64,000 nucleotides of DNA. Source: an uncultured Syntrophothermus sp. (GTDB lineage Bacteria > Bacillota > Syntrophomonadia > Syntrophomonadales > Syntrophothermaceae). Positions 19,392-64,000 of this stretch are shown here, piece after piece. A program made the translations under genes and the position numbers. Position 1 is the stretch's first letter. Each line of letters begins with the position of its first letter. The notes under the pieces were generated by a model. It saw nothing but the letters and a program-made list of their open reading frames with translations, did no database searches and was not told where the DNA came from. The stretch lies in NCBI GenBank assembly GCA_964405385.1, contig CAYONS010000002.1, forward strand, positions 5,019 through 69,018. The letters are read 5' to 3'.

Positions 19392-19423
19392 ATCTTCATT
19401 TCACTCCTTCCTGCTCATCTTCC

Positions 19424-20647: not shown

Positions 20648-20688
20648 CAGGAATTACCCTCCTTCCAGTTCTCTGAATTCGTAGCAAC

Positions 20689-21135
20689 TTACTTGTACTC
20701 GGCGAGGATTGCCGGGATCTTCTCGGGAGTAACATCACCATAAGGCTTCCCGTTGATGGTGATCACCGGTGTGGCTTGGCACTGACCCACGCATTCGGTG
20801 AACTCCAGAGTGAATTTGCCGTCCGGAGTAGTCTCGCCCATCTTAATACCCAGTTCGTTTTCCAGTGCCGCGACTACTTCTGCCGCTCCGGCAATGTGGC
20901 AGGGAGCACTTTCACAAATGCGGATGATGTTTTTGCCCCTGGGTTTGACGGAGAACATGGAATAGAAGGTTGCAACCCCGTAGGCGTCCTTTACCGGGAT
21001 ATTGAATACCTCAGCTGCGGCGATGATCACTTCTTCAGGAAGGTAGCTCTGTTCCTTCTGAATAGCATGGAACGCCTCGATGATACCTCCGGGCAGATCC
21101 TTGTACTTTTCCAGTATTGCTTTGTAGTCGACCAT
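20689..21135 (-). CDS. hydC: NuoE-like [2Fe-2S] thioredoxin-like subunit of the hydrogenase
   Basis: 148 aa with a CESAPCH ... CVGQC Cys pattern and an AAGGAGGTGG SD. Confidence 0.9.
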   Translation of the reverse strand: MVDYKAILEKYKDLPGGIIEAFHAIQKEQSYLPEEVIIAAAEVFNIPVKDAYGVATFYSMFSVKPRGKNIIRICESAPCHIAGAAEVVAALENELGIKMGETTPDGKFTLEFTECVGQCQATPVITINGKPYGDVTPEKIPAILAEYK

Positions 21136-22730: not shown

Positions 22731-25439
22731 CTAGATCTTATCCAGCCTGGCCGCGCATACCTTGTATTCGGGTATCTTAGCCACCGGATCGAGCGAATCC
22801 GCGTTCGTAAGCCAGTTGACCGCCGCTTCGGCAAAGTGGAAGGTCATGAACACTACGTTTGCCTCCAAGATATCAGTTATCTTGGCTTTGACTTCCACAC
22901 TCCCTCTGCGGGTTGACAGCCTCACCTTTTCCCCGTTCTCAATGCCCAGCCTGGCGGCCAAGGCCGGGTTGATCTCCACTTCAGCCTCAGGCACATGCTG
23001 ATGAAGAGCCGAAGATCGACGGGTCATTGTTCCGGTATGATAATGGAATAGGTTGCGGCCTGTAGTCAAAATCAACGGGTATTCTTCGTCTGTAACTTCC
23101 GCGGGTTCTTTGTATTCAATTGCAGAAAAAGCGCCTTTGCCCCGAGTGAACTTCCCGTCCTTGTGCAGGAAAGGAGTCCCAGGGTGATCCTCTGATGGGC
23201 AGGGCCATTGCAGGCCTTTACCTTCCAGGCGGGCATACGTCATCCCGGCGTAGGAAGGAGTAAGGCTGCGAATCTCTTCAAATATCTCTTCTGCTGAGCT
23301 GTAGTTCATCGGATACCCCATCTTCCCAGCCAGTTCACAGATTATCTGCCAGTCTACCTTGGCTTGCCCCGGGGGCTCTACGGCCTTGCGCACCCGTTGA
23401 ACCCTTCTCTCGGTGTTGGTGAATGTTCCTTCTTTTTCGGCAAAACAGGCTCCCGGCAGCACAACGTCGGCGTATCTCGCGGTGTCGGTCAGGAAGATAT
23501 CCTGCACCACCAGGAATTCCAGTTTTTCTAAAGCCTCTTTCACATGGTGCAGGTCCGGGTCGCTCATCATGGGATTCTCGCCGATGACAACCAGAGCCTT
23601 TATCTCTCCTGCGTAGGCTTTGTTGATGGTTTCCGTCAGGGTCAAACCAGGTTTTCCTGAGAGCGAAACACTCCACGCCTTTTCAAACTTCGCCCGCGCT
23701 TCGTCGTTCGCCACCTGCTGATAGCCGGTGAACACATTGGGTAGCCCGCCCATATCACAGGCTCCCTGTACATTGTTCTGGCCTCTCAGGGGGTCGACTC
23801 CAGTGCCCGGACGACCGATGTTGCCTGTGAGCATGGCCAAGTTGCACACCGATTTGACGTTATCCGTACCAGTGCTGTGTTGTGTCAGGCCCATGGCATA
23901 ACAAATGACCGCAGCCTCGGCTTCGGCATAGATACGGGCCGCCCGACGTATATCGGCAGCCGGTACTCCGGTAATGGTTTCTACGTATTCCGGTGTATAC
24001 TTCGCCACTACCTGGGCCATAGCTTCGTATCCTTCAGTATTGGCAGCTATAAACTCTTGATCGGCCAGCCCTTCGCTGATGATGACATTCATTATCCCGT
24101 TAAGGAGGGCCACGTCGGTTCCAGGTCTGTGTTGCAGGTAGACGTCCGCTATTTCGGCTAAGTCGATACGGCGCGGGTCCGCCACTATCAACTTAGCTCC
24201 GTTCTCCAGGACGTTCTTTTTAATCTTCATTCCTATGACCGGGTGATTTTCCGTAGTGTTGGATCCTATAACAAAAATGGCCTTGGCGTCCTCCTCCAGT
24301 TCATTAATGGAGTTGGTCATTGCTCCGCTTCCGAATGCTGTCCCCAGACCGGCGACAGTAACGGAGTGTCAGAGACGCGCACAGTGGTCCACGTTGTTGG
24401 TTCCAAGGACGGCCCGCGCAAATTTCTGGGCCAGGTAGTTTTCTTCATTGGTTATCCGGGCCGAGGTGAAAACCGCTATGGACTCGGGCCCGCTTGTTTG
24501 CTTGATCTCCTGTAAACGCGAGGCTACGAGTTCCAGGGCCTCATCCCAGGACGCTTCCCGGAATTGACCGTTTTCATTAATTAGCGGAGTGGTCAAGCGC
24601 TCAGGTGAATGGATGAAATCCCACCCGAACCGGCCTTTGACACACAGGGCTCCTTTATTGACCGGGCTCCAGTTAAGAGAGCGGTTAGAGGTTACCCCTA
24701 CTACCCGGTTGTCTTTTACGTTCAGTTCCAAAGTGCATCCGGTGCCGCAGTAGGTACAGGTGGTCAGTACCTTTTCTACCTGGTAGGGCCTGCCCTTTCC
24801 TGCACTTACCTTGCTGGTCAAAGCGCCTACGGGACACACCATAATGCACTGACCGCAGAAAACGCAGGGAGAATCAGCCAGGTTGCCGTCAAAAGCGGTC
24901 GCGATCTTGGCGTTGTGCCCGCGTTCAGCCACATTAATGGCCCGAGCCATAGTTATCCCTTCACAAGCCCGGACACAGCGAGTACACATGATGCATTTGT
25001 TGTAGTCTCTTTCAATGAACGGGTTGGGGTCATCGATGGGATACTGGGGCCTTCCCCCATCCCTAAACCTGGAATCGGATACTCCGTATTCGTAGCAATA
25101 ATCCTGCAATTTGCAATCCCCGTTCTTTTCACAGGTCAAGCAGTTGCCCCCGTGACGCGCCAGCAGTAATTCCAGAATCACTCTGCGGGCCTCTACTATA
25201 TCCGGGCTGTGGGTTTCAATCACCATGCCGTTTTCGGCCGGTGCCACGCAGGCCGCCAGAAACAAGGGCCGGCCCTTGGCCTCGACTATACACATCCGGC
25301 ACGAACCGGCCAGCCTAAGATCCGGATCGTAGCAAAGAGTCGGCAGCTCGATGCCGTTTAACCGGCATGCTTCCAGAATGGTACTGCCATCAGGCGCCTG
25401 CACTTCTTTGCCGTTTATAGTCAGTGTTACCATCTTCAT
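22731..25439 (-). CDS. fdhA: formate dehydrogenase catalytic subunit, selenocysteine-containing (Mo/W-bisPGD) with NuoG-like Fe-S N-terminus
   Basis: Two same-frame ORFs (24369..25439 and 22731..24320) join if TGA 24369-24371 is read as Sec: ...[28 protein letters not shown].... This is the classic FDH Sec context. Confidence 0.9.
24338..24358 (-). other. candidate bacterial SECIS hairpin
   Basis: Begins 11 nt 3' of the UGA. CUGUC(G)CC-GGUCUG-GGGACAG forms a 7-bp stem with one bulged G and a GGUCUG loop, resembling the E. coli fdhF SECIS apex. Confidence 0.6.
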
Positions 25440-50240: not shown

Positions 50241-50789
50241 TTGAAGACGTTACGCAGAGTGCACCTCTGGGCCGGAGTAGCTGTTGCCTTGTTTCTTCTT
50301 TTGCAATCGGTCACCGGGCTCATTCTCTCCAACACCCGTCCCGCAGGCCAGGGGCCCCCGTGGGCACGACCGGAATTTGTAACCAGTACGGATAGCAGCG
50401 GTCAGGAACCCTTTCCTCAAGTGGCAGGTCCCGGATTTCAAGGTAGGCGGGGTTTTTTTGAAGGATCAGCCGGTGAAACAAACCCCACTTGGGCCACAGC
50501 TAGGGAACTCCACGAAGGAAGGATAGGTAATTACGATTTTTCCCTGCTGCTGGATATAGCCGCTTTCGGTTTCATCCTGGTCACGGTTACCGGACTTATT
50601 CTTGCCTACAAAGTTCTGAGAGGACCGGGCCGCAAGTCAACACCCAAGGCGCTTGTGGCAACCGGGACACCTGAGCTCCGTGAGGAAACCAAGGTAGCCC
50701 CCGTCGGAGAAGAACACGGGTCTAGCCCTACAGGTGAGGCATCCGCCGATCCGACACATCCTCCGAAGGAGGAAGAAGGAAGTGAATAA
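50241..50789 (+). CDS. PepSY-associated transmembrane protein
   Basis: 182 aa. The N-terminus LRRVHLWAGVAVALFLLLQSVTGLIL is a typical PepSY_TM helix. A second TM segment and a Pro/Glu-rich tail follow. Confidence 0.65.
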   Translation: MKTLRRVHLWAGVAVALFLLLQSVTGLILSNTRPAGQGPPWARPEFVTSTDSSGQEPFPQVAGPGFQGRRGFFEGSAGETNPTWATARELHEGRIGNYDFSLLLDIAAFGFILVTVTGLILAYKVLRGPGRKSTPKALVATGTPELREETKVAPVGEEHGSSPTGEASADPTHPPKEEEGSE

Positions 50790-51870
50790 CATTCGCAATA
50801 TCTTGGTTGTCATTACTTGCCTTGCCGCCGTCACCTTCTGTTTCTCTCCCAGAGTGTCAGCATCGGATTCTTCTCAATATTTAAGTCTGGAAGATGCCGT
50901 GGATAGGGCCTTAACCTACAGTCCAGCTTTGAAGAGCAAAGAGCTATCAGTAGAACAGGCAGAATACCAGCGAGAGGCGGCGGCTTTGGCGGTTTCTTAC
51001 ACACCCACCGGGCAGGCCGATCCTGAAACGGAAAAAGCTTTTAATAATCTGGTTGCCAAAGACCTGAACTGGCAGGTAGCCAAAAAGGAGTTGTCCGCGC
51101 AAAGGGACTCAGTAATTATTCAAGTGTACCAGGCGTACTACAACGTGCTCACGGCCGAAGCTGCACTTGTCAGCGCCGAGAAAAACCTGGCTTATGCCGA
51201 TTTGCAGAAACGCTCGGCTGTTCTGAGACACCAGTTCGGAAAAGCCAGCCTCCTTGAAGTAAAACAGCAGGAAAACTCATACGAAACTGCCAAAGCCCAG
51301 TGGGATTCCGCCAGACAGAGCCTCGACGATGCCTACGTTAAACTCAACCAACTCATCGGGCTTTCCCCATCGGCTCGTCCCGTGCTCACCCATAGGCCGG
51401 CTTTCAAGCCGGTTGAAATCATCAGCTTAGATTCCCTGGTGTCACGGGTCCTTGAAGAAAGTCCAACCGTCAAGAGGGCCCAGCTCTCAGTCAACCAGGC
51501 CCAGATAGCTCTGGACATATACAGTTTCAGCGAAACCGAATACAATTCATATAAGTCTCAGCAGCTCTCTATAACCATGGCCGAGCAAAACTTAGTCTCT
51601 GTGAAAAGCCAGACGGAGCAGCAGGTCCGCTCTCTCGTCAGCAGCATTGTCCAACTGGAAAAAAGTTATCAAAGCCTTAAGAACATGTACGAGACGGCTG
51701 AAAAGAATCTGGAGTGGACCCGGCTCAAGCTAAAGTACGGGGTTGCCAGCCGCATCGAGCTGGCACAGGCGGAAGCAGAAGTCGCCAAGGCGTACCAGTC
51801 CCTCCTTCAAGCCCAGTCCCAACACGAAGTGTTGGCTAAAGCGCTAACTACTCCCTGGGCATACAGCTAA
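50782..51870 (+). CDS. TolC-family outer-membrane-factor-like efflux protein
   Basis: GTG 50782 after a GGAGGAAGAAGGAA SD. A signal peptide is present (CLAAVTFCFSPRVSA), and two coiled-coil OEP-type repeats follow. Confidence 0.75.
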   Translation: MNNIRNILVVITCLAAVTFCFSPRVSASDSSQYLSLEDAVDRALTYSPALKSKELSVEQAEYQREAAALAVSYTPTGQADPETEKAFNNLVAKDLNWQVAKKELSAQRDSVIIQVYQAYYNVLTAEAALVSAEKNLAYADLQKRSAVLRHQFGKASLLEVKQQENSYETAKAQWDSARQSLDDAYVKLNQLIGLSPSARPVLTHRPAFKPVEIISLDSLVSRVLEESPTVKRAQLSVNQAQIALDIYSFSETEYNSYKSQQLSITMAEQNLVSVKSQTEQQVRSLVSSIVQLEKSYQSLKNMYETAEKNLEWTRLKLKYGVASRIELAQAEAEVAKAYQSLLQAQSQHEVLAKALTTPWAYS

Positions 51871-51957
51871 AACCTCACCGGCGACAGTTATCGGCTTCAG
51901 TCAATGTGTTTTATCACGAGACTTAACTGTTACAGCTCGGGGAAAGGAGAGGAATCC

Positions 51958-53387
51958 GTGATAAAGAAAATTGTGAATGCGTGGGCGCGGACGTCAAAAA
52001 CTGCCAAGGCAGCCGTAGCTATACTCGCCCTGCTGACAGGAATCGCTGGGTGGAAGCTGATCGGGCAGAGTTCCAAGACCCCTGAATTAATCACCTACCG
52101 GGTGAGTTACGCTGATATCATACAAACCGTCAGCGCCTCGGGACAGATCGAACCGGTGCAAAGCGTTACCCTAACCTTTAAATCTCAAGGTTACGTGCAG
52201 GAATGTAAAGTTAAGGTCGGGGACCAAGTCAAGGCGGGGCAGGTTCTCGCGATAGAGAAAAGCGAAGACTTGGAAACCGCCTTGCCCCAAGCACAAGCCA
52301 GCCTTGACAACGCGAAAGCAAGCTACAGACGCCTTGTTGCCAACTATCCTCACAAGGTGGCTCAGGCCGAGGCTCAAGTCGCCCAGAGCAAAAACAATCT
52401 GGAGATGGCCGAAGCTGAATTGGAAAGGTCTGAACCCCTATACGAAGCCGGAGTAATCTCTCAATCTGAATTGGACTCGGCCCGGGCCAGCTACCAGTCT
52501 GCTCTAGCACAGTATCAGACTGCCCTCAGTAATCTGGAACTCACCAAAGACAAAGGCGATATCGAGATAGCCGCTGCTCAAGTCAAGTCTGCGGAAGCTC
52601 AAGTTGCCCAGGCCCAAAACAATCTGAGGAACTGCGTAATAACAGCCCCGTTTGACGGTTTCGTTGCCGCTATCACAGGCAGCACCGGCAGTTGACTGCA
52701 GCCGGAACAGCTTCCGAAGCGAGTTCCTCCCAGTTCAGTATTACCATCTTTTCCTCTGAACTCCAGTTGGCAGCCCAGATCAATGAAGCCGATATCGGCA
52801 AGGTTAAAGTCGGGCAAAAAGTCACCTTTACGGTTAATGCCTATCCGGACCGGGAGTTTACGGGCAGGCTTGTATCCCTGTCCCCCCTGGCGACGACGTC
52901 AAACAGCGTGCAGGTCTACGATGCCGTCATCAGTATTGATGACTACAAAGACTTGAGAGCCGGAATGCCGGCGTCTATTACCATTATCGTCGGCGAGAGT
53001 CTTAACGTGCTGGCCGTGCCGCAGTCGGCTTTGGACTATGGACAGGCCTATCTGGCCTCGTCTCGCGCGCGTTCGAGGAGCGGTGCCGGTACCAGGAGCG
53101 CCGTGCAGGAATCCTCTCGAGTCGGCGATAATGCTGCCTTGAATGAACGTGCTTCCATTAAGAAGCCGGTGGTCGTTCTCGCCGGTAATGAACAAACACT
53201 GAGATGGGTGGAAACCGGCCTGTCTGATGATGTGAGTGTTGAGATAAAGTCGGGCCTGAAGGAAGGAGATACAGTTATTACTGGCTCTATCAGCCAAAAG
53301 GCTGATTCAAGCGCTTCCACGAGCGACAGATCATCGAACCGAAACTACACCGCTCCCGGTTTCCCCGGCGGGCCCTTTATGCGATAG
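51958..53387 (+). pseudogene. HlyD/MacA-type periplasmic adaptor subunit, split by a 1-nt frameshift near 52690
   Basis: ORF 51958..52695 ends ...ITAPFDGFVAAITGSTGS*. ORF 52692..53387 continues the same family in another frame (LTAAGT...AQINEADIGKVKVGQKVTFTVNAYPDREFTG). Confidence 0.75.
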
Positions 53388-53398
53388 GGAGGAAAAGA

Positions 53399-54124
53399 GT
53401 GGTGAATGCAAATGCTCCCTTGATAAGGTGCTGTAATCTGACCAAGATCTACCCCCTTTCCGGAATAGAGGTGGCTGCCCTGCGAGGAATCGATCTTGAT
53501 ATATGCAGGGGTGAAATGGTTGCCATTGTAGGCCCCTCGGGATCCGGGAAGAGCACTTTGCTCAACATATTAGGCGGCATGGATAGGCAAACCAATGGCA
53601 CTTATATACTCGACGGCGTTGAGGTTAGCAAGCTTAATGACCGGGATCTTGCTGCTTTGCGTAACCAGAAGCTGGGCGTGGTCTTTCAGCGGTATAACCT
53701 GTTACCCCGGTACACTGCACTCGAAAATGTGAAATTGCCCCTTTACTACGCGGGTTACGATTCAAAGTCGGCTGAAAGCATAGCCACGGAAACACTGGAT
53801 ACCCTGGGCATACTAGGTCTGGCCCATCACCGTCCCAACCAGATGTCGGGTGGACAACAGCAAAGGGTAGCCATAGCCAGGGCTTTGGTCAACCGCCCGG
53901 CAGTTCTTTTGGCCGATGAACCTACCGGGGCCCTTGATTCCGTTACCAGCGAAGAGATAATGCAGCTTTTCCGGGAAGTCAATCGTACGCACCGGGTAAC
54001 GGTCATTGTCATAACCCACGAATCCAACATCGCTGAGTTCTGCGACCGCCGGGTAACAATGCGGGATGGATTGATAGTGAGTGATAAAGTGATAAAACAG
54101 GAGGATCACGATAAGAATGAATAG
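53399..54124 (+). CDS. MacB/LolD-type ABC transporter ATP-binding protein
   Basis: 241 aa with Walker A (GPSGSGKST), the signature MSGGQQQRV and Walker B (LLADEPTGALD). Confidence 0.92.
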   Translation: MVNANAPLIRCCNLTKIYPLSGIEVAALRGIDLDICRGEMVAIVGPSGSGKSTLLNILGGMDRQTNGTYILDGVEVSKLNDRDLAALRNQKLGVVFQRYNLLPRYTALENVKLPLYYAGYDSKSAESIATETLDTLGILGLAHHRPNQMSGGQQQRVAIARALVNRPAVLLADEPTGALDSVTSEEIMQLFREVNRTHRVTVIVITHESNIAEFCDRRVTMRDGLIVSDKVIKQEDHDKNE

Positions 54125-54138
54125 CCGATGATTTCAGG

Positions 54139-54573
54139 GTGATAAACAACGCCCAGATTCAAGAGCAAGCGGAGTCGGTCACCGGAATTCTGACCCTTTT
54201 TCTGGCAGCTGTAGCCGGCATATCCCTGATAGTGGGCGGTATAGGCATCATGAATATCATGCTGGTCTCGGTAACCGAGCGGACGCGGGAAATAGGTATT
54301 CGCAAGGCGGTAGGCGCTAGGCGCGAAGATATCCTCGCTCAATTCCTACTCGAAGCGGTGCTGATGTGTTTTACGGGATCCTTAATCGGCATCCTTGTCG
54401 GCGTCGCAGCCACGAAGGTCTTCACCTGGATCGTAGGATGGCCGACCAGCATATCGGCATCTTCCGTCATATTGGCCATCGCCACCGCCTGCACGGTCGG
54501 CGTTTTCTTCGGCTATTATCCTGCTTACCAAGCCTCGTCCCTAGACCCGGCCCAGGCCTTGAGCTATGAATAA
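54139..54573 (+). pseudogene. FtsX/MacB-type permease remnant (C-terminal ~145 aa only)
   Basis: Retains the last three TM helices (GGIGIMNIMLVSVTERTREIGIRKAVGA). TM1 and the ~250-aa periplasmic domain are absent. A vestigial ATGAATAG overlaps the ATPase stop. Confidence 0.7.
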
Positions 54574-54588
54574 GAATATCATGTATAG

Positions 54589-55377
54589 CTAAGCATAGCT
54601 ATGCAACCCGGGCATCAAATAATTCACTCCAAGAAACGTAAATAAGAGTATTAAAAACCCGATAATGACCATCCAGTCGCCTTTCTTCCCCTTCCATTCT
54701 TTTCTGCGGTGTAAATGTAGGTAAGTAGCATATACTATCCAGGTTATCAAAGCCCAGTTTTCTTTGGGATCCCAGCTCCAATAAGATCCCCACGCCTGTT
54801 CTGCCCAAACGGCTCCAAACAAGATTGATAAAGTCAACATGATGAATCCAACTCTTACTGCCGCATATACCCCATCATTCTTTTCTTCACTTTTGTTCTT
54901 CATCACATCAACCAAAGCCATTACAGCAGCCATCGTAAATCCGGCGTAAGCCACAACTGCTGTGACAACATGAAACGCCAGCCAAGGACTCTTCAGCGCT
55001 GGCATTAAATTACCGGCCTTAGTTAACTGCGCCTGCCCGTTGACCATCACAAATGCGATGAGGGAAGCCGCGATAACCATCACCATCCATCCCGATCGCT
55101 GGCCTGCAGCCTTTCTCGCTACTACTAGGTACACGAGCACAGTTACAAAAACGTAACTCAAGACAAACTCATGCCCGTTGGCGAGCGGCAGCCTACCCGT
55201 CACCGCTGCCCTTGTAATAATTACTGCAAAATTGCAAAAGGCGCCTAATGCCGTTAGCCACCGCGCCAATCTGTAAAAACAAACCCGGTCGTGCCAATTA
55301 CCCAACAGATAAAATATGGCTCCTGCAAAATACAGGACAAAAACAATACATAGTATCTCCCGAACGGACAGACTCAT
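54589..55377 (-). CDS. ccsA: cytochrome c biogenesis protein CcsA/ResC (system II haem handling)
   Basis: 262-aa polytopic protein with the WGSYWSWDPKENWALITW tryptophan-rich WWD motif. Confidence 0.9.
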   Translation of the reverse strand: MSLSVREILCIVFVLYFAGAIFYLLGNWHDRVCFYRLARWLTALGAFCNFAVIITRAAVTGRLPLANGHEFVLSYVFVTVLVYLVVARKAAGQRSGWMVMVIAASLIAFVMVNGQAQLTKAGNLMPALKSPWLAFHVVTAVVAYAGFTMAAVMALVDVMKNKSEEKNDGVYAAVRVGFIMLTLSILFGAVWAEQAWGSYWSWDPKENWALITWIVYATYLHLHRRKEWKGKKGDWMVIIGFLILLFTFLGVNYLMPGLHSYA

Positions 55378-55404
55378 CTATCCCCCCACCTCGACTTCCA
55401 TAAT

Positions 55405-56430
55405 TCAAATCCCCTCTTCAGGCATGCCGTGTCTATCGAAGATGCTGCGTTTGTCAACCGATCCGGCGGACATAGCTGCTATCACACCCGACACCAACAA
55501 CACCCCACCGGCGGCTGCTAAGCCAAGTCCGGGATCCGACTTGACCCTTAGGATAGTCATTGGCTCTACACCGTGGAATACCACGAATACGCCGTCATCC
55601 ACCATGACCTTCCTGCCCGGCTCAGCAGCTCCGACCCCGATTAACCTGTCATTCTCATAAACGGAGTAGAGTACACGAGCATCACCTGTTCTCGTGGAAG
55701 TCTGAAGCATACCACGTTGGGGGTCAAAATCCGTAAAATACCGGACTACCTTTACTACACGCCCGGTGCGCGGTATCCTGACATGTTCACGCTGACGCAC
55801 AAGTCGCTCCGGTTGAGAGACGGAATCTGCAACCGCTTCAACCTTAACTAAGTATGCAAAGCCTGTCTGGTATACCTTCATTCCCCCAATTACTAACGGG
55901 TGATTTACGCTTATCACCCGTTTCACTTTTTGCCCCTTTGAACTGTGTAAGGTTACGTGAGAATAGAATTGGGAAGGAGAGCCGTCTTCGTAGACTGCTA
56001 TATCAAAGGCATCCAGGGTCATGTAAACAGAGGCCTCCGCCTCGATATGGGGAGACAGATTAACCGTTTGCCCCTCCAAAACGGTTATCTCCCTGCTGTA
56101 ACCGAAGAAGTTATTGATTGCAGCTCCAATCAACACCAGGACGATACCCAAGTGCAACATGATAACCCCGGTATGCCGCATTATATAATTCGCGTTGGCT
56201 GCGGCTGCGCCACGCAGGAGCCGCGAGACAAACCGGTTCAATTTCGCAAAAGTGCACAGCACCAAGTTTGCAAGCAGCAGCAGGATTAAGAGCCGGAACA
56301 CAACCGCATGGAAAAACCCGGAGGGAAATGCCACACTTCCCACGGCCGTATGCAGCCCGATAAGAAAAAGCAAGACCAATCCAGTGTCCACCGATGAAAC
56401 AACACGGTAAAATCTTGTTGCGCGTGACAT
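55405..56430 (-). CDS. resB: cytochrome c biogenesis protein ResB/CcsB
   Basis: The start is trimmed to ATG 56428-56430 (MSRATRFYRVVSS) after an AGGAGAGGAAGC SD. It has N-terminal TM segments, a large extracytoplasmic loop and a C-terminal TM segment, and is paired with ccsA. Confidence 0.8.
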   Translation of the reverse strand: MSRATRFYRVVSSVDTGLVLLFLIGLHTAVGSVAFPSGFFHAVVFRLLILLLLANLVLCTFAKLNRFVSRLLRGAAAANANYIMRHTGVIMLHLGIVLVLIGAAINNFFGYSREITVLEGQTVNLSPHIEAEASVYMTLDAFDIAVYEDGSPSQFYSHVTLHSSKGQKVKRVISVNHPLVIGGMKVYQTGFAYLVKVEAVADSVSQPERLVRQREHVRIPRTGRVVKVVRYFTDFDPQRGMLQTSTRTGDARVLYSVYENDRLIGVGAAEPGRKVMVDDGVFVVFHGVEPMTILRVKSDPGLGLAAAGGVLLVSGVIAAMSAGSVDKRSIFDRHGMPEEGI

Positions 56431-56465
56431 GCTTCCTCTCCTAACCCGTTCTGTAACAGATACTT

Positions 56466-56996
56466 TTACTGCTGCCACCCTTCCGGAAGACTGTCCATCC
56501 ATTCAAACTGATGGCACTGAGCGCACATCACTTGCGATTCACGATGCATGCTATGACAGAGGTTGCACTCCTGTTCTCCGTTGTGATTGTCATGAGGGTT
56601 AGATTCCTCGAAGTCAGTCGCACTTTTCACCTTTTCAAAATCATGACAAGAGAGACAAAATTCTCTGGTCCCGAAGTCGCGCCTTGCCAGCGGCGTCTCA
56701 TAATCACCTGTCACGTATTTGACACCTTCGCTGATCTTATCTGATAGCGACTCTTGATGACAGTCGTGACAAGTTACGTCGTGTTCCGCGTGTTTATGGG
56801 CTAAGAGGTTGCCTTCATTCCACGAATCGTAATAAGGTTTGATGATATGGCAATAAGAACAAAAGCCCGGCTTCTCGCTGGCCTTCAAAAGGCCAAATCC
56901 TGATCCACTGCCTATCACTATCAGAACAGCGGCTATCAGCGCCAGGTTCCTCTTCTTTCCCGTCCATTTCCTTGTTTGGTCCTTCATTTCATCCAT
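56466..56996 (-). CDS. membrane-anchored multihaem cytochrome c (NapC/NirT/NrfH-like), five CxxCH motifs
   Basis: 176 aa with an N-terminal TM segment (LALIAAVLIVIGSG). Haem motifs are CSYCH, CHDCH, CLSCH, CNLCH and CAQCH. Confidence 0.85.
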   Translation of the reverse strand: MDEMKDQTRKWTGKKRNLALIAAVLIVIGSGSGFGLLKASEKPGFCSYCHIIKPYYDSWNEGNLLAHKHAEHDVTCHDCHQESLSDKISEGVKYVTGDYETPLARRDFGTREFCLSCHDFEKVKSATDFEESNPHDNHNGEQECNLCHSMHRESQVMCAQCHQFEWMDSLPEGWQQ

Positions 56997-57058
56997 AGCA
57001 CGCACCCCTTCTGGTCGGAATCTTCTGGTACCAACTGAACACGCTTTGGGAATTGCCC

Positions 57059-57547
57059 TTAATCGCCAAGTATAGAGCCCAAACCATTGCCCTTGTTAAC
57101 GTATTTCACCAACTCATTGGTTAATAGCCCTGTTAACAGCCCCGTAGGTACAGAAAACGCCAACATCCAAGGCAGGTAAAAGAACATACCAGGAAAACGC
57201 AGAACAAGTGTTGCCATGGCCAGCTGTCCTATATTGTGGAAGGCAGCTCCCAGAATGCTAATACCTACAATCCCCACTACATTACAGAATCTTAGCCCCA
57301 GAGCCATAACCGCAGCGGACGTAACGGCACCGGCAAAGCTCATAAGAAACCCCATGCCAAACAAGGTCCCCGCCAGCAAGGAGCCGAGAACCGTGCGCAA
57401 AATGACGATTTGCAGGGCCGTCCTAAAATCAAAGACTGCTAACGCCACCAAAGTAATAATGTTGGCCAACCCCAGTTTCACACCGGGAACGGGAACAGGA
57501 TTGGGAAACAGGCTTTCGAGGTAATGAAGAGCCGTGGCCTGAGCCAC
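57059..57547 (-). CDS. Gx-transporter / Hpre_diP_synt_I-family membrane protein (ECF S-component-like)
   Basis: 162 aa from GTG, with 4-5 TM segments and LESLFPNPVPVPGVKLGLANIITL. Family-like sequence (TKRLALIATF) continues upstream without a canonical start codon. Confidence 0.7.
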   Translation of the reverse strand: MAQATALHYLESLFPNPVPVPGVKLGLANIITLVALAVFDFRTALQIVILRTVLGSLLAGTLFGMGFLMSFAGAVTSAAVMALGLRFCNVVGIVGISILGAAFHNIGQLAMATLVLRFPGMFFYLPWMLAFSVPTGLLTGLLTNELVKYVNKGNGLGSILGD

Positions 57548-57593
57548 AAAAGTGGCAATTAGGGCCAGCCTCTTGGTCGATATCGTTCGATTT

Positions 57594-58523
57594 TCAGGTT
57601 CCAGTTAGGAATCCCTCCTTTCTCCTCGGCTGCACCAGCTGACGCCGACCGGAAGATGAAGATACGTATCCGGACGCGTTCAGCAACCTCATGATCTCGC
57701 AAGCCGCTTCTCGGGTGCTCTTGACATCTTTTTTGACATCGAAACCCTTGGCAGCAAGAGCCAGCAAGACCTGTAGATATTCGGGCAGGTCCAGGCAGTA
57801 TCGATTCAGGATTTCATGCTCCGCAACAAGCGCATCCACGCTGCCGAAAAACATTAGGCAGCCTCCGTCCAAAACGGCGATTTTATCAGCACTATTCAGT
57901 ATTCCTTTCAGATCGTGCGATATCATTATCGTCGTCTCGCGTCTTTCCTTGCGCTGCCTAATAATGTCGAAGACCAATCTCTTCCCGGCCGCATCCAAAC
58001 CCGCCAGTGGTTCATCCAGTACAAGTATCTCTGGGCGAATAGCCAAAATCCCGGCTATGGCTACTCGTCTTCGCACACCCCCACTCAACGTAACCGGATT
58101 AGCCTCGACAACGTTTTCCGGAGTCAGCCCGACTTGTGTTAAAGCGTGAAACGTTCTTTCCCGTACTTCGCTTTCCGGCAAACCCAGGTTCCTGGGGCCG
58201 TACGCAATTTCATCGTAAACCGTGGTCTGAAAGATCTGTTGTTCTGGATATTGAAACACCAAACCAACGGTTTTCCAAAGATCGCGGCTCGTTTGCGGAT
58301 CAGACGCATCGAGCCCACATATCTTTAAAGCACCCTTTTTCGGTCGGATCAACCCGTTAAGGTGTTGTGCCAGAGTAGACTTACCGGAACCATTAGGCCC
58401 GAATATTCCGATAAACTCTCCTCGATATATGGAAAGACTGATATCATTGAGAGCCTTGCGCTCGTAAGCCGAGCCAGGTGCATAGGTAAAAGAAAGATTG
58501 CTGATCTTTATAATCTCTGACAT
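57594..58523 (-). CDS. ecfA: energy-coupling factor (ECF) transporter ATPase
   Basis: 309 aa with Walker A (GPNGSGKST), the signature LSGGVRRRV, Walker B (LVLDEPLAGLD) and a ~25-aa C-terminal tail. Confidence 0.88.
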   Translation of the reverse strand: MSEIIKISNLSFTYAPGSAYERKALNDISLSIYRGEFIGIFGPNGSGKSTLAQHLNGLIRPKKGALKICGLDASDPQTSRDLWKTVGLVFQYPEQQIFQTTVYDEIAYGPRNLGLPESEVRERTFHALTQVGLTPENVVEANPVTLSGGVRRRVAIAGILAIRPEILVLDEPLAGLDAAGKRLVFDIIRQRKERRETTIMISHDLKGILNSADKIAVLDGGCLMFFGSVDALVAEHEILNRYCLDLPEYLQVLLALAAKGFDVKKDVKSTREAACEIMRLLNASGYVSSSSGRRQLVQPRRKEGFLTGT

Positions 58524-59347
58524 ATATATCCTACCAACTCGCCAACCGATTTAACGTTTGAAGGAATATTCAGTCCGCTTGCCTCCAACTCCCCGATAAG
58601 CTCGTAAATTTCCGGACAGCCGAGGCCCAGAGTTCTGAGTTCATTACTAAAGAAAACATCCCGGGGCGTGCCATCCAAAAGAACCGACCCCCGATCAAGC
58701 ATGACCAAGCGATCAGCCTGAATCAGATCCTCAGGGTCATGACTGATCAAGATGACGGTTATCCCCTGCTCCTTATTCAACATGTAAAGCTGGGACAAGA
58801 GATTTCGCCTGCTTGCCGGATCCAGCATAGAGGTGGGCTCATCGAGAACCAGATACTCGGGCAACATGGCCAGTACTGAAGCCAAGGCCACCATTTGTTT
58901 CTTTCCGCCCGACAAAAGGTGAGGTGCGTGGTATCGCTCGTCCTCAAGACCGCAGGTATGCAAAGCCCATTCTATCCGGCGCCTTATTTCGGCAAGAGGC
59001 AACCCTAAATTTTCGAGCCCGAAGGCAATTTCTTCCTCAACAATCGGGCACAGCAATTGATGATCGGGATTTTGGAAAACCATTCCCACCGAACGCCTGA
59101 TCTTTCCAAGATTGGCTGGCTGGTCTGTATTCATCCCGTTCACATAGACTTTTCCCGCTGTTGGTTTGATGAGCCCGTTAAGGAGACGGGCCAGGGTCGA
59201 TTTGCCCGATCCGTTCATCCCTAAGACACCAATATATTCGCCTTTGTTTATAGTGAGCGAAACATTGTGCAAAGCCAAAACAGCGTTCCCCGACGCGCCA
59301 CTATACTGTTTAGTCACATTAACCAGTTCAATTCCGGATACGGGCAT
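58508..59347 (-). CDS. ecfA: energy-coupling factor (ECF) transporter ATPase
   Basis: The start is trimmed to ATG 59345-59347 (MPVSGIELVNV) after a GAGGAG SD. Contains GMNGSGKST, LSGGKKQMV and LVLDEPTSMLD. Confidence 0.88.
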   Translation of the reverse strand: MPVSGIELVNVTKQYSGASGNAVLALHNVSLTINKGEYIGVLGMNGSGKSTLARLLNGLIKPTAGKVYVNGMNTDQPANLGKIRRSVGMVFQNPDHQLLCPIVEEEIAFGLENLGLPLAEIRRRIEWALHTCGLEDERYHAPHLLSGGKKQMVALASVLAMLPEYLVLDEPTSMLDPASRRNLLSQLYMLNKEQGITVILISHDPEDLIQADRLVMLDRGSVLLDGTPRDVFFSNELRTLGLGCPEIYELIGELEASGLNIPSNVKSVGELVGYICQRL

Positions 59348-59372
59348 GATGCCACTCCTCACATTACTTTGC

Positions 59373-60155
59373 CTAAATGACTGTTGCCACAGCAACCGTG
59401 AAAAGAACAGCAGCAATTGTCATCGCAACAAAATCCCGCCCGTGCATTTTGAGGCTGCTCAGGCGTAACAGATTTGGATGGGGGCTGTAACATCGGCTGT
59501 CCATCGCTTCGCCTAAATCAGCAGCCCTTGTTAAAGAAGCGTTGAATAAGGGAATTACTACGGCTGTGTAACTTTTTATCTTAACCATAATGCTGGGTGA
59601 ATCGAACTGAGCTCCCCGCGACCTCTGGGCGTTCTTGACGGTAGCCGCCTCTTCGAACACGGTAGGCAGAAAGCGAAACGAAATCCCTAAGACAGTGACA
59701 AGATTCTGAACAGGAATGTTCAATCGTCTTAGAGGGCTCATAAGAGCCTCTATCCCCGTAGACAGTCTTACGGGGGTAGTGGTCATAAGCAGCACTAAAG
59801 ACCCTATGAACAAGACGACCAGTCTTACTATGTTGATAGTTCCAGCCATTAGTCCCTCTCTGGTTAGGGCCAAGACTCCAACAGTAACAACAGGTTGCCC
59901 GTGAGTAAGCAATCCCTGGCAAAGCAGGGTAACGAGCAGCAGAGCCTTTATGCGGTAGATACTTTTCAACACAAGCCTCAAACTCAGTCCAGAAACCAAT
60001 ACGACCGCCAGCATCAGGGACAGCAACCCGAGCAAGTAATAAAGGTTGGTGCTGATCATCACGGAGATGACCGCCAAGGTGCAGCAGATTATCTTTGTCC
60101 TCGGATCCAGCGCATGAATTACGGAATCACCGTGGACGTACTGCCCTAGTTTCAT
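59373..60155 (-). CDS. ecfT: ECF transporter transmembrane (T) component
   Basis: 260 aa. The N-terminus DSVIHALDPRTKI is typical of EcfT/CbiQ. The conserved Arg-containing coupling helices (AQRSRGA) are present. Confidence 0.85.
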   Translation of the reverse strand: MKLGQYVHGDSVIHALDPRTKIICCTLAVISVMISTNLYYLLGLLSLMLAVVLVSGLSLRLVLKSIYRIKALLLVTLLCQGLLTHGQPVVTVGVLALTREGLMAGTINIVRLVVLFIGSLVLLMTTTPVRLSTGIEALMSPLRRLNIPVQNLVTVLGISFRFLPTVFEEAATVKNAQRSRGAQFDSPSIMVKIKSYTAVVIPLFNASLTRAADLGEAMDSRCYSPHPNLLRLSSLKMHGRDFVAMTIAAVLFTVAVATVI

Positions 60156-60205
60156 CGCCGTCTTCGAACCCCTTCGTAATCCTTATATCGGTTATCCTTC
60201 AGTTG

Positions 60206-60565
60206 TCAATCAGTTGTTATTTCCACAATCACCCTGTTAGGCATACATACGGCTATATCACCATATTTTTCTAACCATCCGGTGTGTACGCATATCAGAT
60301 TAGGGCAATCCGATTTCTCGAATCTGATTCTGCCCTTTTCCACCCGAATCAGATTGTGATAATTCCCCGATATCAATATGTTTCGAGGCTTTTCGACCTT
60401 GTCCAGATTGATGCGCTCAATTACCTTGTTGTCTTGAATGATAACCGCTATCCGCTCGCCGCTATGTTGCTTTCGAGAGAATTCTTTATGATACTTGAAG
60501 CCGGCTGCGCCGGCCATAATCCCAAAAGCCAGCAGGACAACTAAAAAAACCTTCTTCTTATCCAT
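60206..60565 (-). CDS. NusG domain II-containing (DUF1312) membrane-anchored protein
   Basis: The start is trimmed to ATG 60563-60565 (MDKKKVFLVVLLAFG). It has one TM segment and then a beta-rich domain with CPNLICVHTGW, as in NusG_II proteins. Confidence 0.7.
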   Translation of the reverse strand: MDKKKVFLVVLLAFGIMAGAAGFKYHKEFSRKQHSGERIAVIIQDNKVIERINLDKVEKPRNILISGNYHNLIRVEKGRIRFEKSDCPNLICVHTGWLEKYGDIAVCMPNRVIVEITTD

Positions 60566-60719
60566 TATGACTCCCTCTTCCCGGCGCTCGTTATCGATCC
60601 TCGAGCAGGAGAAACCGCAGCTTTTGTCTGGACTTATCATACCATGACAGGTCCCAAGAGCGATAAAGGACATGCGGGGAACCCAACTGGGGAAGGTCCC
60701 CGCATGTCGTCCAGAAACA

Positions 60720-62261
60720 TTAACTAGTCAAACCCTTAGCGTACAAGGCTGCATTCTTGCCAGCGGTTCTGCCGGTGTAGCAAGAGTATCCTTGGGCCGA
60801 ACCGGGAAGAGTTAACCCGTAAGTATCGCCGGTAAACCCGTCACAATCCAGTCCCGCAGCGTATAGACCTGCAATCGGCTTGTAGTCTTTGTTCAGGGCT
60901 TCCATTTTCTGATTAACCCTGATGCCGCCACACGTAGCCAGGTTAGCCACCTTGAGCCGGAAGCCGTAGAACGGTCCGGTTTCCACAGGATGCAGGTATT
61001 GCGGGTCCTTCCCATACTCTAAGTCTTTGCCCGTTTTGCAGTACTCATTGTAAGCTCTCACGGTCTCCAAGAAGGTATCCCGGTCAATACCCATTTTGTC
61101 AGCCAGCTCCTCCAGGGTGTCGGCCTTGAAAACAGAAGGCAGCTTCTTTTCGACCGCTTTCTGGAGCTCGGCCTCTAATTTGTCCAATTTTGTGCCCGGC
61201 GTTACATACATGCCGTAGCCAACCGTACAGCCCTCGGTTGCCAACCTCTTGACTTCGTTGCTGTCCATCACGGAAAAAGCCCGGTGCTGAGTCGTGACGG
61301 CATTGCCCGCACGGGTGTAATACCACACAACGTCTTCATTGCAGAAGCGTTTCCCGTCTTGGTTTACCCAGAGAGAGGGCTCCATGGCTCCTGCCGTATT
61401 GATATGAGAATCAATGGGCGTGCCTTCCAAAGTCAGACCGAGCTTCATTACTATCGCGCGTTCGCCCGTGAGAGCGCCGGCTGCTTGAGCCATCTTTATC
61501 CCGTCACCCGTGTGCCCAGGAGCTGCTCTGTCAACTAGGTTGTCCACGTCAACGCGCGTGAGTTCGTAAATCATTTCCTTGTTGTTCCCAAAACCGCCTG
61601 TGGCCAAAACGACCGCCTTAGCGTTGATGATTAGTTCTTTGCCATCCTTGGTCTTTGCCTTAACTCCGGCAACTTTCCCGTCCTTCATGATCAGTTCCGT
61701 GGCCGGGGTGCTCGTTAATATCTCGACACCCAGTTTTTCCGCTGCAGGCTTCATGTGTTCGTTGATGACAGTCTCTCCAAATCCTTCATAGACGTGCCAG
61801 GTCTTATTACCGGCACCCGTACTGGTTACCGTCTCGAATTTCACTCCCATGTCCATGAGCCATTGAATGTCCTCGCCGGCGTGCTTCATAACGTCTCTCC
61901 ACAGATTTCCGTCAACCCTGTAATTGGAAAACTCAAACTCTTCCCGCAGCAGTTCTTGCTGGTTGACCGTGATGCCCAATTCTTTTTGGATCGGGCTTTC
62001 GCAGCCGAATATACCTTCTGCAAAGTTCGTGCTTCCACCTAGAACACTCTGTTTCTCCAGCAATATTACTTTCGCGCCCTGACTGGCAGCTTCAATGGCT
62101 GCTGACATTCCGGCCATCCCTGAACCCACCACTACCACATCAGCTTCTTTCGCCTCTGCTTTACTTTCTTGTTTTTCGCCGCCAGCACCACCGCAACCAA
62201 CCAGGACAAACATCATAGCCAGTGCCAGGAATAACGCCAGTAACTTGCGAGCTTGTTTCAT
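60720..62261 (-). CDS. extracytoplasmic lipoprotein FAD-dependent oxidoreductase (soluble fumarate-reductase/flavocytochrome flavin-domain family), substrate unknown
   Basis: 513 aa with signal peptide and lipobox MKQARKLLALFLALAMMFVLVGC and no twin-Arg. Contains an FAD fold (VVVVGSGMAGMSAA) and the C-terminal GLYAAG motif. Confidence 0.85.
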   Translation of the reverse strand: MKQARKLLALFLALAMMFVLVGCGGAGGEKQESKAEAKEADVVVVGSGMAGMSAAIEAASQGAKVILLEKQSVLGGSTNFAEGIFGCESPIQKELGITVNQQELLREEFEFSNYRVDGNLWRDVMKHAGEDIQWLMDMGVKFETVTSTGAGNKTWHVYEGFGETVINEHMKPAAEKLGVEILTSTPATELIMKDGKVAGVKAKTKDGKELIINAKAVVLATGGFGNNKEMIYELTRVDVDNLVDRAAPGHTGDGIKMAQAAGALTGERAIVMKLGLTLEGTPIDSHINTAGAMEPSLWVNQDGKRFCNEDVVWYYTRAGNAVTTQHRAFSVMDSNEVKRLATEGCTVGYGMYVTPGTKLDKLEAELQKAVEKKLPSVFKADTLEELADKMGIDRDTFLETVRAYNEYCKTGKDLEYGKDPQYLHPVETGPFYGFRLKVANLATCGGIRVNQKMEALNKDYKPIAGLYAAGLDCDGFTGDTYGLTLPGSAQGYSCYTGRTAGKNAALYAKGLTS

Positions 62262-62591
62262 ACTCTGCCGCCTCCTTTTCCTATATTGCTTCTTTGTAAA
62301 GTTTTAAGACTATTTTCAACATCTGGGTTCAAGACGAGGTTGCGCTTCTTACCATGGAATCAGGTGCACAAGCCTTTAATGAGGAGTGGCCTTCTTAGTT
62401 GTAAAGGAAAGAGAGTTTCCGTACTCGATACCTATAACCCTGTTAGACTGTAACTGATCCGTTAGCAGGTTCAAGTCGGCACTTCTTTCACCCCCCTTCC
62501 GCGGCCACCCTCCGGACAATCAGTTACTCGTGGCGAAATTCGCTTGCGGATTGCCTTTTTGTCTGTTCGCCTTGTTTTGCCTGTATCTTGT

Positions 62592-62608
62592 TGCAAAGTT
62601 CATGCCGA
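62592..62608 (-). promoter_or_regulatory. candidate sigma-54 -24/-12 promoter facing the reductase operon
   Basis: Minus strand reads tcGGCATGaactTTGCAa. GG and GC are separated by exactly 10 nt, as in TGGCAC-N5-TTGC. It lies ~330 nt upstream of the 62261 start. Confidence 0.4.
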
Positions 62609-62994
62609 CACTAAAAGGGCGTTCTTTCGGCATATGGCAAAATCTGTGTCTCAGAAAAAAGTTTCATTAATGTTCTTTGAGACTTGACTCCGGCTTTTTC
62701 GTGCTGTATCTAAGAGTTAAGACCGGAAACAACGGTCCCGGTCAGAAAAGGACGCGGGCATACCACTGCTCCAGTAAATGCCTGTGCTCAGCGATTAACA
62801 CCTATCCTTGGGACGATAATGACCAATGCTCAGGGAAGACGCGATTCAACTGCGATTGGCATTTCGGTGTGAACAAGAGTCGGTTCGCTTTTGAGCGAAC
62901 GAAAACGGTGCTTTCTGGCGAATACCAGAGGCTCGGGATTGGCAGTTACATGGTGGAGGCAATCGATGGGCTGAACGAGGGGAGTGGTAGCACG

Positions 62995-64000
62995 ATGGGG
63001 TCTAGTCAGATATTTAGTCCTATAATAACAAAACTAGAAAGTACCGACAAAAGAGATCTTAATAGTAAAACTAAAGCTTTGATCAAAACAATTCGGGAAT
63101 ACAAGATAGACATTCTTAACCACAAGAGTCCTGATTCGACCACAGATTTGGTCCGCGCCGAACTCCTTGAATCCTGGATGAGATCCAAAAATTACGGCCT
63201 TGCTCTCTATAATTTTGGTTTTGCCCCAATCCTGGATGACGCTGGCTTGCGTCAGCTTCTTGAGAAGAAAGAATTGCTTTTGGTCGCTGCCGACCCATAT
63301 ATTAAAGAATTAGAAAACATGATGTACAACAACCCCAGTATGATACTCCTTTCCGACGAAAACGGGGTTATGCTCCGAGTAGCAACAGGGGAGCACAAGT
63401 TTTTCAAGAAGGCTACACAGGAGTTCGAGTTAGTTCCTGGAGTCAGATGGTCAGAAGATACCGTAGGAACCTGCGCCCACGTGATGACCCTCATCAAAGG
63501 AGTCCCCTACCAGCTGGCCAGTTCAGAACACTACTGCGAAAGCTACGAACGGTTCTCCTGCTCTTCCGCCCCTATTTTCGATTTGAACGGTAACATTGCA
63601 GCTACTCTTTCCATTGTCAGTCCCCACGTCCACCATCAAAACTCGCATTCTTTGGGCCTGGTGACCTCCATGGCCTGGGCTATCCAGAACCGGTTCCAAT
63701 TGATATTACGCGGGTACTTAGCAGAAACAGATTCCCTATCCGATGCCGACATCGTCTTAGTTGTCAACAAACGCGGTTTCATAACTGCTGCGAACAATAC
63801 TGCCAGACGGCATTTTAGCGGTGTGTCCAGCGTCACCGGGGTACCCGTTGAGTCTCTTCTCGGCCGTTTGTCTTTCATGAATGATGTATTAGCAGGAAAT
63901 TCCATGCAGGACGTGACAATCGAAACCGAAACCCTGAAGCTGGAGTTGAAATCTGCCCGACCCGTCATCGACGACCGGGGCAATATATACGGTCTGGTCT
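62995..64000 (+). CDS. AcoR-like transcriptional activator, N-terminal sensor part only (GAF-like domain + start of PAS); probably a sigma-54 enhancer-binding protein; runs off the right edge
   Basis: Manual translation is open for 335 codons to the window end. ELLESWMRSKNYG ... GTCAHVMTLIKGVPYQLASSEHYCESYERFSCSSAPIFDLNGNIAATLSIVS resembles the AcoR-type N-terminus. The AAA+ domain is not in the window. Confidence 0.65.
   Translation, partial: MGSSQIFSPIITKLESTDKRDLNSKTKALIKTIREYKIDILNHKSPDSTTDLVRAELLESWMRSKNYGLALYNFGFAPILDDAGLRQLLEKKELLLVAADPYIKELENMMYNNPSMILLSDENGVMLRVATGEHKFFKKATQEFELVPGVRWSEDTVGTCAHVMTLIKGVPYQLASSEHYCESYERFSCSSAPIFDLNGNIAATLSIVSPHVHHQNSHSLGLVTSMAWAIQNRFQLILRGYLAETDSLSDADIVLVVNKRGFITAANNTARRHFSGVSSVTGVPVESLLGRLSFMNDVLAGNSMQDVTIETETLKLELKSARPVIDDRGNIYGLV

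Follow-up and report, generated by a model that had tools for sequence, protein, structure and literature searches.

In Listeria, both the export of flavin adenine dinucleotide (FAD) and the flavinylation of PplA need EetB, a protein that pulls down FAD and whose structural model resembles the S components of energy-coupling factor (ECF) transporters (Rivera-Lugo et al., 2023, PMC9973259). Export further depends on FmnA, which serves as the ECF-T partner of EetB, and on the housekeeping EcfA/A' ATPases; EetB did not substitute for the riboflavin importer RibU in flavin uptake, and the direction of transport strictly followed the S subunit (PMC9973259). In the same study eetB homologues were defined as PF07456, and a survey of 4,214 eetB genomes found an ECF-T gene adjacent in 291, ECF-A/A' genes in 796, eetA in 3,328 and apbE in 2,169, about half of the genomes having no apbE nearby (PMC9973259). 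Its Data Set S1 labels PF07009/NusG_II proteins as EetA and lists eetB near reductases that contain an FMN_bind domain; deletion of EetA in Listeria gave no phenotype (PMC9973259). The Listeria gene lmo2639 had earlier been noted as encoding a DUF1312 protein. Here we describe a five-gene cassette of this type in a 64,000-nucleotide stretch of DNA from an uncultured Syntrophothermus sp. (assembly GCA_964405385.1, contig CAYONS010000002.1, positions 5,019 to 69,018; hereafter the window), where it is enclosed in an operon for an exported flavoenzyme.

Bfe of Shewanella, a MATE-family protein, moves FAD across the cytoplasmic membrane to supply periplasmic flavoenzymes and shuttles. It belongs to a transporter family unrelated to ECF systems, uses an ion gradient instead of ATP, and is not encoded with its client. 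PMC9973259 alludes to such a flavin exporter of Gram-negative bacteria. How Sec-exported enzymes acquire non-covalent FAD outside Gram-positive-type cells has been worked out only in part, and the ECF exporter model in the literature is bound up with covalent flavinylation by ApbE in one organism.

The operon is a minus-strand run of nine tightly packed genes at window positions 54589-62261 (about 7.7 kb). In order of transcription these encode a FAD_binding_2 protein, a NusG_II protein, EcfT, EcfA, EcfA', a PF07456 protein (Gx), a five-haem cytochrome, a ResB-family protein and a ResC/CcsA-type protein. The interval 57059-60565, bounded precisely by the stop codon of Gx and the start codon of NusG_II, delimits the cassette, which lies between a Sec-type lipoprotein flavoenzyme upstream and a five-haem NapC/NirT-type cytochrome downstream. 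The genes of EcfA and EcfA' have 16 nt in common, and those of EcfA' and Gx share 11 nt if Gx begins at its probable CTG. A first-pass annotation of the sequence had placed a complete T-A-A' module and a PF07456 protein, preceded by a NusG_II protein, inside a reductase operon, and all five genes were confirmed there. The features are as follows; the gene calls and coordinates of several of them were taken from contig L001, which is identical to the window DNA.

62908..64000, plus strand: sigma-54 enhancer-binding activator, cut by the window end, 725 amino acids (aa) in full (gene call and Pfam on L001)
62592..62607, minus strand: candidate sigma-54 -24/-12 promoter, CGGCATGaactTTGCA (read from the sequence)
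60720..62261, minus strand: lipid-anchored extracytosolic FAD-dependent reductase of the fumarate reductase/urocanate reductase superfamily, 513 aa, VprA-like (PF00890, E = 6e-56)
60206..60565, minus strand: EetA homologue, 119 aa from MDKKK (PF07009, NusG_II/DUF1312, E = 4e-29)
59373..60155, minus strand: EcfT, the ECF transmembrane (T) subunit, counterpart of Listeria FmnA (PF02361, E = 2e-33)
58508..59347, minus strand: EcfA, ECF ATPase, 279 aa (TIGR04520, 326 bits, cut-off 315)
57594..58523, minus strand: EcfA', ECF ATPase (TIGR04521 as best match, 311 bits, cut-off 330)
57059..57604, minus strand: EetB homologue (Gx), from a probable CTG start; annotated GTG start at 57547 (PF07456, E = 4e-44)
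56466..56996, minus strand: five-haem NapC/NirT/Cgr1-like membrane-anchored cytochrome c (PF14537, PF03264)
55405..56430, minus strand: ResB-family cytochrome c maturation protein, system II (PF05140, E = 2e-30)
54589..55377, minus strand: ResC/CcsA-type haem-handling protein, system II (PF01578, E = 3e-46; TIGR03144, 218 bits, cut-off 188)

Since PF07456 corresponds to EetB and PF07009 to EetA, the cassette reads eetA-ecfT-ecfA-ecfA'-eetB, and we consider it likely that it is an EetB-type ECF exporter which loads the adjacent lipoprotein reductase with FAD outside the cell. The gene identities, the S-component fold, the signal type and the conserved linkage are shown by the analysis itself; from homology and context we infer that FAD is carried, that it moves outward, that the flavoenzyme receives it and by which route electrons travel. 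The first-pass annotation had also proposed flavin export, and this idea is well supported by analogy and fits the model published for exactly the PF07456 family. It referred to Listeria EetB and FmnA but overlooked that Gx is itself EetB; its statement that neither Gx nor the NusG_II protein has a defined function is accordingly outdated for the former, and holds for EetA, whose deletion had no phenotype.

The window Gx matches PF07456 over the full length of the family (151 bits, cut-off 30; profile positions 3-147 of 147). A search of the PDB with the Gx sequence yielded no match, and the kinship of Gx with S components became visible only in a fold search. An AlphaFold2 model of the full-length protein (predicted local distance difference test score 86, predicted template modelling (TM) score 0.82) has six membrane helices. 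When this model was searched against the PDB with Foldseek, the nine best matches were all ECF S components with probability of at least 0.99, although the E-values were weak (0.015 or higher); below the ninth match the scores fell abruptly to unrelated folds. Thermotoga RibU ranked best (TM 0.65-0.70), followed by Staphylococcus aureus RibU, 5EDL, the S chains of 4HZU/4HUQ, and ThiT. On this model, Gx has the six-helix fold of ECF S components. Such components characteristically dock on EcfT through an AxxxA motif in their first helix. Helix 1 of Gx (...LALIATFVAQATALH...) contains both A-TFV-A and A-QAT-A, and across the aligned family these alanines hardly vary.

The motif lies partly inside an N-terminal extension that is absent from the annotated gene. 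Gx homologues are about 181 aa long; the annotated window product, which starts at GTG 57547, is 162 aa long, its first residue falling midway through helix 1. The 19 missing residues (LEPENRTISTKRLALIATF) are encoded in frame immediately upstream, in a stretch that contains no ATG, GTG or TTG. A CTG at 57604, 57 nt upstream of the annotated start and 9 nt after a GGAGG, gives a product of 181 aa whose extension aligns with the 181-aa homologues. Gx of Syntrophothermus lipocalidus carries the same GTG/162-aa annotation; the upstream stretch is kept there with synonymous or conservative changes only, and the CTG is kept as well. Judged from the sequence, translation almost certainly begins at CTG 57604 and the annotated gene is probably truncated: with its start 57 nt too far downstream it would lack half of helix 1. 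The end of the interval given in the first-pass annotation, 57059, was right.

The best structural relatives of Gx, the RibU importers (TmRibU 5KBW/5KC0, S. aureus RibU 3P5N), share with it the six-helix S fold and the same type of T/A/A' module, and their cargo is a flavin, as presumed for Gx. They differ from it in belonging to another Pfam family at 10-19% sequence identity, and presumably in the direction of transport. In addition, ribU genes are normally solitary and share the housekeeping module, whereas Gx sits in a cassette with a module of its own.

The nearest solved relative of the window EcfT is that of Lactobacillus brevis (4HZU_T, E = 6e-38), as against E = 4e-4 for CbiQ (5X41). 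EcfT is hence of the group II (shared-module) sequence type, and the operon also supplies the module with an S subunit of its own. Compared with the Gx-linked T subunits of nine further distinct loci, the window EcfT shows 53-65% identity, and the coupling-helix motifs SRG and SRC are kept in all Gx-linked T subunits. The second of these motifs, SRC, is not claimed as an exporter signature, there being no importer set for comparison. Two ECF-type ATPases, as expected for an EetB-type exporter, are present: EcfA scores above its curated cut-off and EcfA' has ECF_ATPase_2 as its best match. Even if the module were the only, housekeeping EcfAA'T of the cell, as the first-pass annotation had considered, this would be no true refutation of export, because the Listeria exporter borrows the housekeeping ATPases. 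A housekeeping EcfAA'T guessed from open reading frame (ORF) sizes at 3.4-6.0 kb of the window was rejected, the ORFs being panB, panC and panD together with a gene for a DUF2520/Rossmann-like protein.

Second ECF modules were found next to the Gx-linked one at two loci. A Syntrophomonadaceae metagenome-assembled genome (MAG; L012) has a partial second T-A set beside the Gx locus, with its T gene at 1411, and Syntrophomonas wolfei subsp. methylbutyratica (L014) has two tandem T-A-A' modules there, with the second T gene at 6618. The window T subunit is merely 25-26% identical to these second T subunits, and no S subunit belonging to the additional modules was identified.

EetA is encoded by the first gene of the cassette and consists of a single N-terminal membrane helix and a NusG_II (DUF1312) beta domain. 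Its relatives in the PDB are Lin0431 structures (3LD7/2KPP, E = 1e-11), and the solved NusG_II homologues (3LD7, 2KPP, 4ESN, 4OBI) carry no functional annotation. Among 69 EetA homologues the flank N-terminal to the helix has a net charge of +1.7 and the C-terminal flank of -0.2, with the N flank more positive in 34 cases against 13; this bias points to a helix anchored with its N-terminus inside and to a beta domain outside the cell. EetA accompanies EetB whichever neighbour is present, ApbE or a flavoenzyme. No EetA-EetB fusion protein was found among the 88 loci collected (see below). One locus (L087, 1154-3391) has a 745-aa ORF upstream of the Gx gene, in which an N-terminal NusG_II/EetA module is fused to a long uncharacterised C-terminal region.

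The presumed client has a lipoprotein signal: its N-terminus, MKQARKLLALFLALAMMFVLVG followed by C, contains the lipobox LVGC at residues 20-23, the cysteine being residue 23, and no twin-arginine (RR) motif. A linker of 17 residues separates this signal from the Rossmann motif GxGxxG. With a lipobox and no twin arginine, the enzyme is expected to cross the membrane unfolded via Sec and thus to need FAD outside the cell. The signal type proposed in the first-pass annotation, Sec-type lipoprotein and not Tat (twin-arginine translocation), was borne out here and likewise in all the cassette-attached homologues described below.

Among curated families, vinyl phenol reductase VprA (NCBIfam NF053717) is the closest to the window enzyme (504 bits, E = 4e-151), but the score is below the equivalog cut-off of 600 bits, so the enzyme is a close relative of VprA and not assignable to it. 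The VprA profile has no signal peptide, its position 4 aligning to residue 37 of the window enzyme. Pfam gave no match to FMN_bind (PF04205) in the enzyme and no flavinylation-like motif was seen; it therefore falls outside the ApbE-flavinylated FrdA/UrdA class, which has an FMN_bind domain with a flavinylation motif. The nearest solved structures are the flavocytochrome c fumarate reductases (Fcc3) and the urocanate reductase (UrdA) of Shewanella. Like Listeria FrdA, Shewanella UrdA and Fcc3, Geobacter methacrylate reductase and Eggerthella Cgr1/Cgr2, it has an extracytosolic FAD_binding_2 domain that would be fed by a respiratory chain. Unlike this group, it has neither an FMN_bind domain nor a fused cytochrome domain, and its signal is that of a Sec-exported lipoprotein. 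The window and the Cgr system both have a NapC/NirT/Cgr1-like membrane cytochrome as partner, which is also found in the cytochrome c-dependent methacrylate system of Geobacter.

The window cytochrome has five CxxCH motifs and an N-terminal helix at residues 18-37, and its score against PF03264 (34.7, cut-off 24.1) places it among the NapC/NirT/NrfH/Cgr1 quinol dehydrogenases, although it does not reach the cut-off of the Cgr1 equivalog in NCBIfam (85 against 340 bits). Presumably it acts as a quinol dehydrogenase feeding the flavoenzyme.

Divergent from the operon lies the gene (L001 292-2469) of a regulator with Sigma54_activat (E = 7e-66) and HTH_8 domains (Pfam, on L001), whose N-terminal 390 or so aa had no Pfam match; the orthologue of the type strain showed only a weak match to MimR_N. 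A GG-N10-GC element at 62592-62607 lies between the two, some 330 nt ahead of the start codon (ATG) of the flavoprotein. The sigma-54 pattern is not enriched in the window (6 found, 8.8 expected by chance), so this candidate is plausible only because of its position beside the activator gene. The divergent activator probably switches the operon on. Scans for sigma-70 promoters and terminators over 54-63 kb gave counts at or below chance. An FMN or other riboswitch in the leader of about 330 nt was rejected, as an Rfam search of the whole window, leader included, gave no match.

In all, 88 Gx loci (85 distinct) were collected from context look-ups and from one scan of a genome collection with the Gx alignment, of which the best 80 of more than 600 matches were used. 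Neighbours were scored within 8 kb of Gx, using profiles made from the window proteins and from the ApbE and FMN_bind proteins of L003. NusG_II was found at 70 of the 85 distinct loci and ApbE at 49. EcfT was present at 11, ten of which have a T subunit 39-65% identical to that of the window and are all among the closest Gx relatives, while the T subunit of the eleventh (L033) is merely 26% identical. A true homologue of the flavoenzyme occurred at six loci (the window, L005, L006, L011, L013 and L079). Weak flavoprotein matches in the vicinity of Gx in L038, L055 and L058 (24-25 bits) reflect nothing more than a generic Rossmann fold and were left out of the count.

ApbE is absent from all six flavoenzyme-linked loci, while 49 of the 79 other loci have it (P-value = 0.0045, Fisher test), and neither an ApbE nor an FMN_bind gene was found anywhere in the window. 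All six flavoenzymes have the lipobox cysteine and none has RR; in a direct Pfam scan of those from the window, L013 and L079, no FMN_bind domain was detected. The arrangement of flavoenzyme and cassette recurs in L005, L006, L011, L013 and the S. lipocalidus type strain, whereas in L079 only EetA and EetB accompany the flavoenzyme, and the cytochrome is carried by three of the six (the window, L005 and L013). Between lineages the attached flavoenzymes are 30-59% identical and their T subunits 56-65%. That the flavoenzymes have diverged more than the T subunits fits a supply of cofactor and argues against transport of a substrate.

The window flavoprotein clusters at 90% identity or above with WP_013174415 of S. 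lipocalidus, a species that was reached through this cluster, since it lies outside the best 80 of more than 600 Gx matches. Its genome (CP002048; L089, 8263-17662) has the same activator and nine-gene block, with 79% nucleotide identity to window 54589-64000. Synteny stops exactly at ccsA, the last gene of the block (54590), and the downstream flanks are unrelated. The GC content of the block is 0.498 and that of the rest of the window 0.534. Together, the sharp end of synteny, the unrelated flank and the lower GC content suggest a relocatable module.

The closest relatives without the flavoenzyme, L002 and L003, whose Gx is 70% identical to that of the window, carry the same cassette beside ApbE and an FMN_bind-Peripla_BP_2 protein, a setting of flavin trafficking that is in keeping with a flavin cargo. 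At these loci (L002/L009, Desulfotruncus arcticus; L003/L010, a Bacillota MAG) the ECF-Gx cassette, ApbE and NusG_II stand beside a fusion lipoprotein whose Peripla_BP_2 part is a siderophore-type binding domain, and FecCD and ATP-binding cassette transporter genes adjoin. The locus looks like a flavinylated iron-uptake system. L002 has in addition a NapC/NirT-like cytochrome with ResB and CcsA.

Compared with the Listeria exporter, the window cassette has the same PF07456 S subunit, PF07009 EetA, ECF-T partner and two ECF ATPases, and the two would have a common purpose, flavin for proteins that mature outside the cytoplasm. In Listeria, however, no dedicated ATPases exist and the housekeeping EcfA/A' are borrowed, whereas in the window four transporter subunits and EetA are joined in one cassette. 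Exported FAD is passed in Listeria to the ApbE-like FmnB for covalent attachment of FMN; the window cassette has no ApbE in its neighbourhood, and its presumed client would bind FAD non-covalently. The electron path also differs, with Ndh2, demethylmenaquinone and PplA in Listeria and probably a multihaem cytochrome c in the window. Linkage with ApbE flavinylation, the usual context of eetB in the published survey and no strict requirement there, is not seen within the 64 kb.

On these grounds the operon might work as follows. Once sigma-54-dependent induction had turned it on, EetB (Gx) would take up FAD on the cytoplasmic side and dock on the EcfT/EcfA/EcfA' module, and ATP hydrolysis would set the flavin free on the outer side of the membrane, possibly with the help of EetA, a membrane-anchored accessory protein that accompanies EetB. 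The apo-flavoenzyme would be exported unfolded by Sec, lipidated and placed on the outer face, and would then bind FAD non-covalently outside the cell. ResB and CcsA would supply haem to the five-haem cytochrome, export it and attach it. Electrons would flow from menaquinol through the cytochrome and the FAD enzyme to an unsaturated acceptor, and the block would thus represent a self-contained outward-facing reductase with delivery systems for both cofactors.

Export of flavin need not be aimed at the neighbouring enzyme. The cassette could provide a general extracytosolic supply of FAD, used by an ApbE and flavinylated proteins encoded elsewhere or as a free flavin shuttle, and its place in the operon would then reflect co-regulation only. 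A use with ApbE is suggested by L002 and L003 and by the published survey, in which eetB lies beside apbE in 2,169 of 4,214 genomes (PMC9973259), and the set T-A-A'-Gx of Dehalobacter (L004) stands alone with no obvious client. We nevertheless think such a general role unlikely for the window, as ApbE is missing within 8 kb of Gx at all six flavoenzyme-linked loci and from the 64 kb of the window, and the cassette is set between enzyme and cytochrome in one same-strand block that is conserved as a unit. It might also be argued that the cassette is an ordinary ECF importer of riboflavin, FMN, FAD or another vitamin, perhaps serving as a general ECF energising module, for every ECF system characterised before 2023 imports, the T subunit is far closer to shared-module (group II) EcfT than to CbiQ, and among PDB structures that of the riboflavin importer RibU comes closest to Gx. 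Yet Listeria EetB could not take the place of RibU in uptake and direction follows the S subunit (PMC9973259); at the 85 distinct loci PF07456 genes accompany ApbE (49) or exported flavoenzymes (6), which need flavin outside; and L012 and L014 keep divergent ECF modules in addition to the Gx-linked one. Import therefore seems still less probable than a general supply.

Catabolic operons often include a transporter for the substrate of the pathway, so that the cassette might be thought to carry the substrate or product of the reductase, or another small molecule that is not a flavin. An enzyme that faces outward has no need of substrate import, one and the same conserved cassette accompanies flavoenzymes that share just 30-59% identity with one another, and ApbE in other genomes, and Listeria EetB pulled down FAD (PMC9973259), all of which makes this explanation very improbable. 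One conserved cassette with alternative flavin-dependent clients points to cofactor supply rather than to substrate transport. Several observations weigh against an exporter dedicated to the adjacent enzyme. The outward direction is drawn by analogy from one organism, Listeria. EcfA' falls slightly below its curated cut-off (311 against 330 bits), and the topology of the window EetA is less clear than the family average, with more positive charge after the helix than before it (5 against 3). The absence of ApbE refers to the window and to 8 kb around Gx, and an apbE could lie elsewhere in the genome. The sample of loci favours relatives of the query and is phylogenetically uneven, and the six flavoenzyme-linked loci represent about three lineages, which makes the statistics fragile.

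The kind of transporter has already been published, including operons with T, A and A' subunits, and the window cassette is a further example of it. In the literature surveyed, no description was found of an ApbE-free link between such a cassette and lipoprotein FAD reductases that are not flavinylated and come with a multihaem cytochrome and haem-attachment genes of their own. Nor did the literature provide usable information on Rnf or ApbE in Syntrophothermus. The relationship to the client is thus possibly distinct from that of the published EetB systems. We tentatively suggest, at somewhat less than even chances, that in this lineage the EetA/EetB-ECF cassette has become an ApbE-independent, client-dedicated system for FAD insertion, which would pass non-covalent FAD straight to the Sec-exported apo-flavoenzyme on the outer side of the membrane, with the extracytosolic NusG_II domain of EetA as a hand-off or docking factor, and that the block amounts to a portable reductase with both of its cofactor-delivery systems.

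Because a single regulator and some 7.7 kb of DNA, free of apbE in its vicinity, bring together exporter, ATPases, EetA, the presumed client, cytochrome and haem genes, the block is a compact candidate for heterologous reconstitution, through which the direct hand-off of FAD, the role of EetA and the determinant of ECF transport direction could be addressed. For genome annotation, the labels "Gx transporter" and "heptaprenyl diphosphate synthase component I" mask a function in flavin trafficking.

Two further loci of the window were noted. At 22731-25439 on the minus strand, the catalytic subunit of a formate dehydrogenase is split into two ORFs by an in-frame TGA (HCARL-TGA-HSV). As this is the classic selenocysteine site, the gene probably encodes one selenoprotein and is not a pseudogene. 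NuoE/F-like genes adjoin it, and positions 17667-21135 hold another NuoE/F set together with an [FeFe] hydrogenase. On the plus strand, a MacAB/TolC-like efflux locus (50734-54573) looks degraded: the membrane-fusion protein is encoded in two overlapping ORFs (51904-52695 and 52692-53387), and the FtsX-type permease has only 144 aa, whereas the permease at a non-orthologous locus of the type strain has 395 aa and a MacB_PCD domain. The TolC-like OEP proteins at this locus are unusual in a Firmicute.

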